A DNA stretch of 63,868 nt, filler included, from Perkinsus olseni (Eukaryota): the NCBI GenBank assembly GCA_013115125.1. It is 6 parts of 6 records of this genome, joined end to end, with 100 filler letters (N's around TTAATTAATTAA, not from the genome) between each part and the next. Parts side by side here need not be neighbours in the genome. Positions count along the whole stretch, not along the records: positions 57,645 to 63,868 come from JABANN010001113.1; 5 more parts are not named here. One strand, given 5' to 3'. Below the pieces are notes generated by a model. It had not been told where the DNA came from. It did not search any database and saw only the letters and a list, made by a program, of their open reading frames with translations. The position numbers and the translations under genes are program-made. How positions within the stretch are numbered: the first letter of the stretch is position 1; each line of letters opens with the position of its first letter. Positions 57,645 to 63,868 of this stretch are shown piece by piece.

Positions 57645-59794
57645 CAGGGCTTATAATTATAGGTAATATTACTACATAATTAGGTATTTACCATTATATG
57701 ATTTATTAGATATTTAAATAAAAGTATATATGATGATATAATAAAGAGATGGTCTATATATTGATATTAATATAATCTATAGGTTTATTATGGATTTAAT
57801 ATATATTTAAATATATAATATAGTTATTAGTACATGATATTAGATAGAATAATATTATTATAACCCATATCAATAAAGATATATATATATTATTGTTTAC
57901 TAAGGTATGGTATTAATATAATATCCTTATTATTTATAAACCAATAGTATATATAATATAGAGAGTTAAATAAAGATATAATAATATACTATGGGTATCT
58001 ATGGAGATACTATTAATTATAATATCCTTTATAATATATTAACTTATAATATAAATAACATATATTTACTAGTTAGTATACTTTATATCTATGTATTATT
58101 ATTTACTTTATATATCTATAGTAATAAATATAACTATAATCTATCTAGTTGGATAAAGAGATAAAACCAGAGAATTAGTTATTAAATTTATACTTTATAT
58201 GGGCACTGGGCACTAAATAATAATAAGATGATTAGTATATATAAATAGTAAAGTGCCCAGTATATATATTATATTATATTCATTAGTAATATAGATATAT
58301 AATATACTCTAACTATATAAGGTTATATAAATTATTATAATATAGTAATATTATGTCTATTAATATATATATAAGGATTAGATTACTAAGGTATTAATAT
58401 AATGTACTATTAATAATATATTAGATAGTTAATACCAGTGATAAATATATATATTTAGTAATTATTAATACTTTATCTATCTAGATATATATAGATTAGG
58501 GATTATTTATTAGTAATTAAATACCATATATTAATACATTATAGATATATATATAAATAGTATTATATAAAATACCTTGTTTTATCTCCATAGTCTCCAT
58601 ATTTATTAATATTTATAATATAATATATACTTTATAGTGTATTTTATAGGTATTTTATATATAAATCTAATCTAAATATCACATATCTATAATATATACT
58701 TTAGATATAATCTATTTAATTAAATATAATATTATAAGTATTTTTATCTCTATGTAATACCTTAATTATATCTTAATCTAGTTTATATACTATGGAGGGA
58801 TAGATTTATATATTATTAATTAATAAGGTATTAGATTATTAAGATACAATATAGTTTATCTCCATAGAACAGCATGCAATATTTATACTTATACTATATA
58901 TTATATTATGTTAATGCATGCTGTATATATATTATTATGGTCTATAAATATATAATATGGTGTTATCTTATAATATATTATAAATGCCTATAGTATACCC
59001 CTCCATAGTGTAATATTATAATAATCTATAATTAATAATATGCTATTTTCATTATATTTCATTCTATTAATAATCATATTAAATTCATATAAATTATTAC
59101 TGTTAATATAGTATTATATAGATATAGATATTATTGACTAGGGCTATATATTATCATAATATTACCTATTTATACCATTATTATTATTTTATTCCAATAT
59201 AAATTATTCATATTATTATAGTATTTATTATTATATTATACTATATCATAAAGTATTAGTATATAATTATGTCTATATATAAATATATTATATTAAGGTA
59301 TAAATAATACTATATTATATTGAAAGGGCATATATAAATATATTAGGTTTATACCCATAAAGATATTAATTAGTATATAATAAGATAACCCCCCATAGAT
59401 AAATAGTATTTATTATTAATTATATATTAGTATATTACTAGATAACAATATTATATATAATCTTATATTTCATCTCCATACTTTATTTATTAATATATGT
59501 ACATTATAAATATATACCTATAGTGGGTTATTCTATCAAAATATACTTATAATAATAACTAATATAAATAATAATAATTATTAATATAAAGAATTCATTG
59601 TATTTATCTATACTTTATGATATGTTATGGTATAATTATATATTTAAATATTACTATTTTATGATATTATACACTATTCCCTAAGTATATATTTAAGGTT
59701 TACTATTATTTATTATTATATGGGTATAGAGTATAATATATTATGTTATATTTATAGATATTATATAGTACCATATTATAGATTATATTATATA

Positions 59795-59885
59795 TTTAGA
59801 TATAGATAAGCTGACATGGAGGTACTAATAATTTATATTCTTAAGAGCAGATATATAATATTTAACCTATTATCCCCTGTTTATA
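59795..59885 (-). rRNA. Mitochondrial LSU rRNA fragment, peptidyl-transferase region (LSUF-like; E. coli 23S ~2440-2515); ends approximate
   Basis: The minus strand reads ACAGGGGATAATAGGTTAAA-...-TATTAGTACCTCCATGTCAGCTTATC. This matches CCGGGGAUAACAGGCUGAUA ... GUUUGGCACCUCGAUGUCGGCUCAUC with a 39-nt spacing versus 38. The CUCCAUG variant is the form I recall from apicomplexan mt LSUF. Confidence 0.88.
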
Positions 59886-61369
59886 TATTATTAAAATTAT
59901 AGGATATATTTACATTATATTTATAATATGTACTAATATTACTAGTAATCTATATTTATATCTGTACCTGCATATTAATAATATAAGATATATAGTATAA
60001 ATAAATATATAATGCAGGTACTTTATCTCCATACTATACTTTATAGACATATTATATTATTAGGTATCAGATAAGATATAATATAATTAATAATATAACT
60101 AAATATACATATACCCAACATATATATATAGTCATCTAAGATTATGGGTATATATATGATATCTTATATTTATAGGTAAATTATGTTATTAGTAATCTAT
60201 GTCCATGGGCCTATTAAATAATAATAATATAATATATAAAATAAACTATTGCCCATGGACTATATAAATATATATATATAATTTATGGATCTAATAGATA
60301 ATATAAACCTGATATCCCATAAATACAGTATTTATTACCATATGATTACTATATAATTTATATAAGTATGATACTATAATTATAATATGATATTATTATT
60401 AATAATAGATAGAATTATATGGTATTATAATAAATATAGATATAATTATAATGTAATACAAGAATATGAATAATATAGAATTAAATATACCATATAATGA
60501 TAAATAACATAAAATAGATACTTTATAAATATAATATATATAGGATTAGTTTATATTATTATCATATTAAAGGGATATATTAGTATGATATTGTACCCTA
60601 TTATATATATTATGTAATTATTTTATATACTTAATTCTATATAGATATATACACCCAATATTAGGATATTATATAATAAATATTGATAAGGCCCTTTAAT
60701 ATTATATGGGGGTGTAAATATAGATATATAATTACTAATACACCCCATATTCTTATCTCTATATTATGCCCCTATAATGTATTATACTATATATAAACTT
60801 ATTATTAATAAGGGGCATATCTATAGGTTACTATATATTTAATATAACCATGGAATCATAGTAATAAATATAATACTTATCCCATATTATAGCTAGTATA
60901 TAAGATCATTATATAACTTCTATTATAATAAATAATTACTTTAATATATAATATTACTAGTATATCTATATATTACTTATATTATCTACATCACTATCCA
61001 TATTTATATTCATATTATTATTACTATTAATTTTATATATAATAATCTATACCCAACCACTAAATAAATATATATATAATGTATACTATTACTAATAATA
61101 TGTGGTTGGGATTATAATATAGGATACATTTATATATAAATCATCATATGATAATAAATCCTTAGTATATGTATATAATAGTTAGATTAATGTATGGTAT
61201 ATCTTATTACTATATATAATATTTATATATAAATATCAAGATATTATACTTATGATATAGGATTACCTTTATTAGATAATTACTTAGATTATTATAGATT
61301 ATATAATATCAAGTATTTTATCAGATATTGGTATGGATAAACAGTAAATTATGATTTATTTGTTAATAA

Positions 61370-61420
61370 TGATTATTTATTGCATGCCTATAACCATGGA
61401 ATGACATTAGATATCGTATA
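61370..61420 (+). rRNA. Possible mitochondrial SSU rRNA fragment (helix 34 5' strand)
   Basis: TATTGCATGCCT (61378-61389) resembles 16S GCUGCAUGGCU (~1050-1060) and has no hairpin partner nearby. The match is short. Confidence 0.35.
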
Positions 61421-63868
61421 TATATATCTTTAGCCCTGGAAACTAATAATATTTATATATAAATATAGCAGGGCTAGTAATAAGGTCATAAATATATATT
61501 TAAGGTAACCACTAGTATATGTATATATTTAGTATAATCATTAATTATAATATAGATAAACCCCATAGGAATATTATATTATTAATATCTATAGATAGCA
61601 TATTATATTACCTCCAGGGTGTATATTTATTTATATTAATAATCATATATTTACTATTATTACACCCTGGTATTATTATATTTCATATTAATATTAATTT
61701 CATATTATTTATATTTAATTAAAACTATATGTATATCTTTATAATTATACTTATTATTATATCTTATTATCAATAAATACCAATAAATATTATCTAATAA
61801 TATATTTATCCTTTATTATTCTATTTTATATTATAATAATATCATAAATAATCATATATTACATAAATATCACTATAATTTATATCTATCTATATTTTAT
61901 TCTATATATTTATTTCTAGTTTATTTATTCTATTATAATATTCTTTATAAATTATCTTTATCTAATTATTAATTCTAACTTTATATTCTATTAAAACTAT
62001 ATATATATATCTATATTTAAGGGTGTATTACTATATATTAATCTATATATATCTAGATGGTATAATAATATCTATATTTAGTAATAATTATAATTATAAT
62101 TATCCTATAGTTAATATCTATCATTATTTATATCTAGTGAATTCATATATATATTCATTTACTATTCTAATATTATTTCATATAATTATAAATAGGTAAT
62201 ATTATTAAGAGATAAAACACCTTGCTTTGTTATTAATAATTTAACTATATATATAATATTTTATTAGCAAGGTGTATATAGTGTTATTATCTTATAATAT
62301 TTATAAAGGTATTTAATTAATATATTATTATACCAGTAAACCATACTTATATATATAGGATTACTTATCATTAGATTTAATACTAACTATAGGGAATATT
62401 ATAATAAAATATATCATTATTAATATTTAATAGAATATATATGTTTATATTATTAATATTATACTCACTATTATATAGTTTATCAATAAATATATTATAT
62501 ATTATCTTAGATAGTCTATGGATAGATAATACCATATATAGATATATTAGATTATAATAAATATGATACCATAGAAATTAATAAGATAAATATAAGTATT
62601 TTAATGAATATATGGATATTATGATATATTGATATGTAAATTAAGGTATTATATTATATAGTATATTATAAATAGATCTAACCATCATTATAAGGTAAAT
62701 ACCACCTTTATAGATATAAGATAACAAATAAGGTCTATGGAGATTACTATTAATATTTTATCTAACAACACCTTTATATATTTATTTATATAAATATAGG
62801 TGTTGTATTAATATCCATAATTGATAAATATATTAATTATCATTATATATATTCCCTTATTTATTACTAGGATTACATTATCTATAATATTGGGTACATA
62901 CTATTTATTAACATATTTATAGGTATATTATTAGTATTATGTTAATATATTATAATATTAGATATTACTATGATAACCTATGGCCAATACTATATATTAA
63001 TAATTATATTTATAAACATATTATATATCATAAATACTATATGGAGTACTAACTAGATATATATGAATATCAATAATATAACATATACATAAATAATATA
63101 TTAATAATAAGGTATATACCTATAGTATTTATGGGCCTAATATTACAGTATTGATCTTATATATATAAATAACTATATCTTGATAATATATATATATATG
63201 GTATTTAGTAATCTATGTACTTTATGGTATTATCCCATCATATATAACTAGATATTATTAATCATAAATAGTATAAAGATATAATAGGTATATTACTAAT
63301 TAGATATTATTACCCATGGATACCTATATTAAATATATAATATTAAGTATAAATATATAAGGTATATATCAATAAAGTATATATATATGTTATATCTCCA
63401 TATTTAATATATAGGTAATTATATATCGATAGGCTATTTATATCCTAATATTATATATATATATACTAGATACCTATAATAATATAATACCATAAAGTAC
63501 TATATAAATCTATATTGATAAAAGGGCATTATAAATCTAGTTAGGGCCCTAATATAAGGATATATACCCTCTAGATGATATTATTGATAATATGTCCTAT
63601 ATTATATAGTGATCTAATGATGGATAAATACCAGATAAAACTATATATAATATAATAATTACAATAAGATATACTATTAGGCCTTTATTCATTAATAGTA
63701 TTTATATTAATATGGCCTCCTAGTATATAAACCTATATTTATAATAATACTATATTAAGGGAGGCCATATAATAATAATTATTAGTATAAATCTATATAA
63801 TATTATACCATAACATATTATATATTAACTTAATAATATTAGTGATCAATACCATATAGTTATTCTTA

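Follow-up and report, generated by a model that had tools for sequence, protein, structure and literature searches.

The window analysed here, 63,868 nucleotides (nt) of DNA from the clam parasite Perkinsus olseni, joins six contigs, and the last of these (57645-63868) carries a set of short hairpins that form an element class defined by shape, not by sequence, in the gene-poor mitochondrial DNA of this species. The first five contigs, of 11.3-11.5 kb each and with 50-55% G+C, are of nuclear type, and an open reading frame (ORF) of the fifth showed 100% identity with an NCBI protein named Perkinsus olseni. On the sixth contig, the 52 bases at 63506-63557 were identical to one row of the 'RNA27t' ribosomal RNA (rRNA) fragment alignment in Supplementary Figure S14, part of the supplement to PMC9550989. 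Within this match 63517-63555 (39 bases) was re-found exactly and the other bases were compared by eye, and the species label of the row is unreliable in the text extracted from the supplement PDF. Because this segment equals a published Perkinsus mitochondrial rRNA-fragment row, the contig is, judged by its sequence, mitochondrial, and its G+C content of 16.7% fits the composition of published Perkinsus mitochondrial genomes. The first-pass annotation had described it as mitochondrial and dinoflagellate-related, an assignment with which both the RNA27t row and the nuclear ORF agree.

Passages of PMC9550989 give the mitochondrial genomes of four Perkinsus taxa as 40.9-95.1 kb long with 82.2-86.3% A+T, and describe a gene content of only cob, cox1, and cox3 plus a small number of rRNA fragments (in P. 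olseni, four were detected), the remainder being without known role. According to the same passages, the taxa have little intergenic mitochondrial sequence in common, and turnover is fast. On the contig studied here, the longest stop-to-stop frame under genetic code 4 was 77 amino acids, and a Pfam search of its 24 frames of at least 40 amino acids gave no match. ARAGORN found 0 transfer RNA (tRNA) genes on the contig, and an Rfam search of it (E up to 1) yielded no family above threshold and a single sub-threshold, unrelated match; these results lend no support to the role as tRNA-sized RNA genes that had been suggested for the hairpins. The supplement's P. olseni rows for LSUF, SSUA, and RNA16 were absent from the contig.

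Geometry, composition, and relatedness of the hairpins

We scanned the contig for inverted repeats with perfect arms of at least 9 bp containing at least 4 G/C and a spacer of up to 300 nt, using 300 dinucleotide shuffles as controls. The scan returned 12 inverted repeats against a shuffle mean of 0.45 and a maximum of 3. Nine of the 12 fell into the spacer class of 36-41 nt, for which the shuffle mean was 0.007 and the maximum 1, so the near-constant loop length noticed in the first-pass annotation held against shuffled sequence on this contig; two of the other three are formed by copies of a different repeated motif, which lie 194 and 199 nt apart. The nine arm pairs, their spacer lengths, and their unit lengths of 55-61 nt, as listed at first pass, all proved correct on recount, as did three further, smaller hairpins with loops of 22-30 nt (Table 1).

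Table 1. Coordinates of the contig, its hairpins, and its candidate rRNA piece (positions in the window)
Feature	Position	Strand	Arms (left / right)	Arm length	Spacer	Remark
A+T-rich contig	57645..63868					6,224 bases, 16.7% G+C; piece of P. olseni mitochondrial DNA without protein gene
Hairpin 1	58205..58261		ACTGGGCACT / AGTGCCCAGT	10 bp	37 nt	
Hairpin 2	58869..58924		ACAGCATGCA / TGCATGCTGT	10 bp	36 nt	
Imperfect candidate of the same geometry	59672..59731		CACTATTCCC / GGGTATAGAG	8/10 paired	40 nt	Not separable from chance
Hairpin 3	59964..60021		GTACCTGCAT / ATGCAGGTAC	10 bp	38 nt	
Hairpin 4	60201..60260		GTCCATGGGC / GCCCATGGAC	10 bp	40 nt	
Smaller hairpin	60704..60750		ATATGGGGGTGTA / TACACCCCATAT	8 bp (perfect core)	22 nt	Extra G in left arm
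Hairpin 5	60765..60819		TATGCCCCT / AGGGGCATA	9 bp	37 nt	
Hairpin 6	61052..61110		CCCAACCAC / GTGGTTGGG	9 bp	41 nt	
Smaller hairpin	61431..61476		TAGCCCTG / CAGGGCTA	8 bp	30 nt	
Hairpin 7	61614..61670		CCAGGGTGTA / TACACCCTGG	10 bp	37 nt	
Hairpin 8	62217..62275		ACACCTTGCT / AGCAAGGTGT	10 bp	39 nt	
Smaller hairpin	62765..62806		ACAACACCT / AGGTGTTGT	9 bp	24 nt	Spacer itself an AT stem
Candidate mitochondrial rRNA piece 'RNA27t'	63506..63557	+				Published alignment row; outside the hairpin class
Hairpin 9	63710..63770		ATATGGCCTCC / GGAGGCCATAT	11 bp	39 nt	

The nine main hairpins and the three smaller ones together give a density of about 1 per 520 bases, and all 12 have spacers of at most 50 nt (nine of 36-41 nt, and three of 22, 24, and 30 nt). 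That nine of 12 spacers lie inside one 6-nt window has a probability of P = 2e-5 under a uniform spread over 3-60 nt. The five nuclear-type contigs (57.1 kb) contained 34 comparable repeats with broadly scattered spacers, three of them at 36-41 nt. None of the 12 hairpins overlaps the RNA27t candidate at 63506-63557; the contig has no protein gene that would serve for contrast, and the boundaries of cox1, cob, and cox3 lie off it.

The nine main stems are all perfect, two of 9 bp, six of 10 bp, and one of 11 bp, and their ends are sharp: the flanking pairs outside and inside the stems matched at chance level (21/63 each by hand tally). The common shape is thus a G+C-rich clamp of 10 (+/-1) bp on either side of about 38 nt of nearly pure A+T, and across all hairpins the arms hold 4-7 G/C in 8-11 nt. 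G+C stems of 6-8 bp at 36-41 nt spacing were absent from the contig, and there was no tail of decayed copies: one independent imperfect site was seen (59672, 8/10 paired) against 0.17 in shuffles, at least one such site occurring in 15% of the shuffles.

Chance or an assembly artefact has a negligible probability of explaining the array. The sample is a single contig, which leaves room for either, but the shuffles produced almost none of the 36-41 nt class and the words of the contig recur in sequencing runs. At least half of the sampled contig words were present in each of six sequencing-run rows from two studies, and one of these rows, with 0.94 of the contig words, comes from a sample without the flag of a possible source. 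Since nearly all of the contig's words are thus present in runs of two studies, including an unflagged sample, an artefact of assembly is unlikely. No RNA run was among the listed sequencing runs that contain the contig's words, and runs with small shares of the words (0.09-0.30) were left out of the evidence.

Analysis of arm composition revealed that the excess is limited to arms containing G+C. In the 36-41 nt class, nine repeats with such arms were seen against 0.0 in 200 shuffles, whereas AT-only arms of at least 9 bp numbered 5 against 11.2 expected, and AT-only arms were under the shuffle mean for every spacer bin. The spacers were depleted in G+C (7.6% vs. 16.0%), with 2.9 G/C per 38 nt compared with 6.0 in other 38-nt windows, and 0 of 20,000 resampled sets were as low; the 40-nt flanks were ordinary, with a mean of 6.6 G/C on the 5' side and 5.1 on the 3' side. 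The first-pass statement that much of the contig's G+C sits in paired arms was too strong, since the arms account for 110 of 1,039 G+C bases, yet hairpin arms make up 22 of the 51 10-mer islands that are dense in G+C.

These results bear on the proposal that the hairpins are functionless by-products of replication, in which template switching near rare G+C-rich words leaves behind an inverted duplicate, the replisome determining how far away it lies, and the stable copies persist until they are deleted. One-step copying of local sequence predicts that every stem is unique and perfect, as observed, and events of this kind are documented elsewhere (in parts of PMC8794818 and PMC8604942); intergenic DNA is poorly conserved between Perkinsus species according to passages of PMC9550989, so the elements may be young. 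Copying that is blind to sequence should, however, enrich AT-only arms as well, which were below expectation in the 36-41 nt class, and it leaves the G+C-poor spacers, the narrow ranges of arm and spacer length, and the missing decay tail unexplained. We consider this origin unlikely.

Comparison among the copies showed that the arms are all different at full length. The earlier claim that no two stems are the same holds in that sense, while two hairpin pairs have a 6- or 7-mer in common (GGGTGTA at 61614 and 60709; ACACCT at 62217 and 62765), which is near chance by a hand estimate. Spacer alikeness had a mean score of 11.8, and G+C-matched windows one of 10.3; 2.3% of the control sets reached the spacer value. 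No loop motif common to the nine hairpins was found, and their surroundings contained no repeat modules, whether direct or tandem. In a search for flanking target duplications, adjacent direct repeats were only 0-3 nt long (P = 0.66 vs. random placements).

Copies of a small mobile hairpin element, like the GC clusters of yeast mitochondria or other palindromic mini-elements, would also appear as dispersed G+C-rich hairpins in A+T-rich mitochondrial spacer DNA, and the array is superficially GC-cluster-like in this respect. The P. olseni copies differ in having no common sequence and no target duplication: their arms are all different, their spacers are barely more alike than the controls, they lack a loop motif, and their flanking repeats are at chance level, which makes a mobile element very improbable. 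Two further hairpin types were compared. Integron attC sites are folded recombination sites with conserved core sites at the outer arm ends, and no terminal consensus of this type was present across the nine arm pairs. Intrinsic terminators have a loop of a few nt followed by a T run, a form that the hairpins do not share, with their loops of 36-41 nt and 3' flanks without a consistent T run.

DNA-level and RNA-level readings of the array

Some constraint or specialised process must act on the shape itself, in which a G+C clamp of one helical turn encloses some 38 nt of almost pure A+T, because sequence-blind template switching would also make AT-only repeats and leave G/C in the spacers, and a mobile element would leave a common sequence. 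The selection on structure put forward in the first-pass annotation gains indirect support from the enrichment limited to G+C-containing arms, the absent decay tail, and the G+C-depleted spacers.

We favour, tentatively, the reading that the hairpins are DNA-level structures in which a GC clamp locks an AT bubble that is used in replication or recombination. During replication, transcription, or torsional stress the A+T stretch would melt, and the clamp halves would then pair within each strand, so that both strands carry an unpaired loop of constant size that stays open. Replication or recombination proteins may load or prime there, in which case the protein footprint would set the loop size. 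The complementarity of the arms could be kept if one arm is recopied from the other by template switching within the repeat, and imperfect copies would lose function and then decay. We infer all four components, namely DNA-level action, the open-bubble mechanism, the protein ruler, and arm correction.

All 89 of the 89 stem pairs are Watson-Crick pairs, and G-T pairs number 0. One-strand RNA tolerates G-U, which is the commonest product of A+T-biased mutation, whereas perfect complementarity is what folding of both strands requires, and it is also the expected outcome of recopying one arm from the other. The stem pairs therefore speak for a function of the DNA, or of both strands, rather than of an RNA from one strand, an argument that falls short of proof. 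How template switching generates perfect stems and keeps them so is described in parts of PMC8794818 (Monttinen and Loytynoja 2022).

Folding predictions were obtained for the nine units in both chemistries. As RNA, the clamp was the predicted minimum-energy structure of all nine (-14.2 to -22.2 kcal/mol, z-scores -1.6 to -3.1); as single-stranded DNA, predicted folding energies were -7.8 to -12.7 kcal/mol, and the loops were predicted to be largely unstructured. The RNA folds suit a different explanation, in which the elements act at the RNA level, either as transcribed GC-clamped stem-loops that serve as processing or stability signals (cf. the 3' inverted repeats of chloroplast transcripts) or as small structured RNAs to which a helical-repeat protein with a fixed footprint binds; these small RNAs might mark rRNA pieces that have escaped detection. 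A loop of A/U only suits single-strand RNA-binding proteins. The rRNA fragments found in P. olseni number just four, which leaves many small RNAs to be accounted for, and LOTTE-seq reads were reported from AT-rich mitochondrial sequence without tRNA structure (both from passages of PMC9550989). This explanation is nevertheless rather doubtful: pairs of the G-U type should have arisen under A+T pressure and been tolerated by RNA, and the stems contain none; the contig's one annotated RNA candidate (63506-63557) lies about 150 nt from the nearest hairpin; and the contig gave no Rfam or tRNA match, while the loops have no motif in common.

Several points weigh against the DNA-level reading. Extruding a hairpin with a 38-nt spacer from duplex DNA carries a high cost, and one hairpin per 520 bases or so is dense for origins. 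Hairpin formation in vivo and initiation at the hairpins are predictions, and the geometry is that of one 6.2-kb contig. The left arms hold 32 C and 19 G on the + strand (hand count), which a symmetric DNA element would not predict. Finally, the argument from exclusively Watson-Crick pairs fails if the elements are very young, and passages of PMC9550989 describe fast turnover of Perkinsus intergenic DNA.

Comparison with known mitochondrial hairpins

The closest described counterparts are dinoflagellate repeats. Passages of Jackson et al. 2007 (PMC2151934) describe mitochondrial inverted repeats of Crypthecodinium cohnii and Karlodinium micrum that are G+C-rich, have arms of >9 nt at most 50 nt apart, and occur almost only in non-coding DNA, in some cases at the ends of genes. 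The P. olseni hairpins resemble the repeats of those passages in their perfect G+C-rich arms, their A+T-biased mitochondrial setting, the lack of a single sequence family, and a host lineage within Myzozoa/Dinozoa. By the arm length of >9 nt, seven of the nine main hairpins (10-11 bp) agree with the published description and two have exactly 9 bp, while the smaller three have perfect cores of 8-9 bp. They differ in that the arms are fixed at 9-11 bp and the spacers at 36-41 nt, the latter being G+C-depleted, a ruler of a kind not described in the passages of PMC2151934 considered here. The host also differs, being the perkinsozoan Perkinsus olseni, from a sister lineage and not a core dinoflagellate. 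Because the host is Perkinsus, we class the hairpins with the dinoflagellate repeats by kind, as their counterpart in a sister lineage, and not as members by descent. New relative to those passages are thus the lineage, the strict arm-plus-spacer ruler, and the A+T-only spacer.

Intergenic stem-loops of Amphidinium carterae mitochondria (Nash et al. 2007, as cited in parts of PMC2151934 and PMC2952869) have imperfect stems of 50-150 nt and loops of about 10-30 nt. Going by these excerpts, they share with the P. olseni array the density of inverted repeats in myzozoan mitochondrial spacers and the AT-rich loops, and differ from it in that the P. olseni stems are perfect and 10 bp long, with loops of about 38 nt. 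Excerpts of Mikhailov et al. 2019 (PMC6649704) describe perfect coding palindromes of up to 284 bp inside hairworm mitochondrial genes. As far as these excerpts and those of PMC8794818 go, hairworm palindromes and template-switch hairpins are likewise unique, perfect repeats that are hard to build by point mutation and suggest a route of origin or upkeep, but they show no fixed arm-plus-spacer ruler and no limit to G+C-rich arms.

In the vertebrate light-strand origin and in the G+C clusters A and B of yeast mitochondrial ori, a G+C stem closes an A/T-rich loop on a displaced single strand. The P. olseni hairpins are alike in this combination of G+C stem and A/T loop and may, by analogy, work in the same way. 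Origin-type stem-loops have one or few conserved copies and smaller loops, in contrast to the many P. olseni copies, each with a different stem.

To our knowledge, the hairpins are the first regular, non-random feature in the non-genic remainder of Perkinsus mitochondrial genomes. A literature search on hairpins or inverted repeats of Perkinsus mitochondria found no other report, and the portions of the main text of PMC9550989 consulted make no mention of intergenic hairpins or inverted repeats, the supplementary annotation files being outside this check. Repeats of this kind were considered to be missing from Hematodinium and Oxyrrhis, both early-branching, and hence to be a late dinophycean trait (PMC3268668). 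If the P. olseni hairpins are kin to the dinoflagellate repeats, this inference of a late origin needs revision. Should they instead have arisen independently, G+C-clamped hairpins would have evolved twice in A+T-rich myzozoan mitochondria, and such convergence would speak for function. The fixed size of the hairpins offers a concrete handle, a protein footprint.

A broader and improbable extension is that the mostly 'empty' Perkinsus mitochondrial genomes of 40-95 kb are organised by a sequence-free ruler signal that is read by its size, by a single-strand-binding, helicase, or primase complex, with the copies acting as dispersed starts of replication or recombination. Under this extension the hairpins would be ancestral to the dinoflagellate mitochondrial repeats, having originated in the common ancestor of Perkinsozoa and dinoflagellates and been lost in Hematodinium and Oxyrrhis.

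Searches outside the contig were made with several patterns. The exact hairpin 9 pattern gave 0 matches in a metagenome collection. A Perkinsus-type cox1 frameshift motif, back-translated from the translations in the supplement, gave 0 matches in the metagenome and prokaryote-genome collections; its two matches to viral contigs, in giant-virus bins of 28-50% G+C and without cox1 context, were taken as chance. A search for relatives' DNA with a Perkinsus LSUF rRNA motif also gave 0 matches.

Other features of the contig and of the window

Some individual hairpins have features of their own. At 58198-58214, the left arm of hairpin 1 follows a 7-nt tandem copy, GGGCACT GGGCACT, which creates a second pairing register with a 44-nt spacer and resembles local slippage. 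The hairpin at 61431-61476 overlaps the sub-threshold Rfam match, an L13 leader with 28.3 bits against a gathering score of 44, and this match was taken as chance. Perfect inverted repeats with AT-only arms of 9 bp or more fell short of the dinucleotide-shuffle counts in each spacer class (7 vs. 26 at 0-11 nt, for instance). Short palindromes containing G/C (CCATGG, GCATGC, GGCC, and GGGCCC) recur both in the hairpin arms and in unpaired G+C islands.

The contig also carries a dispersed motif, (T)TTATCTCCATA(G), which occurs in both orientations at 58000, 58584, 58593, 58858, 59472, 60025, 62736, and 63394, plus variants. Its copies form inverted repeats with one another over longer distances (spacers of 62, 194, and 199 nt), and it could be a promoter or processing signal. 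The word ATCTCCATA was present seven times against 0.17 in shuffles, some 9-mer reaching seven copies in 6 of 200 shuffles; no link between this motif and the hairpins was detected, 2 of the 12 hairpins lying within 10 nt of it (P = 0.5). Other recurrent words were CTCCATA (11 times vs. 0.76 in shuffles), CCATGGA (five times vs. 0.23 in shuffles), and the 12-mer TAACCATGGAAT, which occurs twice (60845-60856 and 61391-61402).

Strand asymmetry was observed in two blocks that directly follow hairpins. After hairpin 7, the block 61671-62018 is almost G-free over about 340 nt, and 61671-62216 holds 17 G vs. 45 C (P = 0.0005); after hairpin 5, the block 60820-61051 holds 9 G vs. 26 C. Turning points of the cumulative G-C skew lie near five consecutive hairpins, and the partition test reached only P = 0.049, which we treat as a lead. 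Within the RNA27t candidate at 63506-63557 lie the palindrome TTAGGGCCCTAA and a weak stem (GGGC/GCCC). The candidate resembles the Plasmodium row of the supplement only modestly, and the rRNA assignment therefore looks tentative.

Runs of N separate the six contigs of the window at 11521-11620, 23122-23221, 34693-34792, 46137-46236, and 57545-57644, each around the 12-nt TTAATTAATTAA, so adjacency of the blocks is biologically meaningless. On a nuclear contig, Rfam placed two divergent tRNA genes at 30523-30595 (+) and 30693-30764 (-), about 100 nt apart, of which ARAGORN confirmed only the second, as tRNA-Pro (CGG). Other ORFs of the nuclear contigs have a eukaryotic aspartyl protease domain and SNF2 domains. 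One nuclear contig carries SNF2/RAD16-like helicase ORFs at 47573-49534 (-) and 53658-54854 (-). Among named proteins, those most similar to the two come from Perkinsus as well (about 51-56% identity), and the sequences suggest that the two ORFs belong to a lineage-specific paralogue family.

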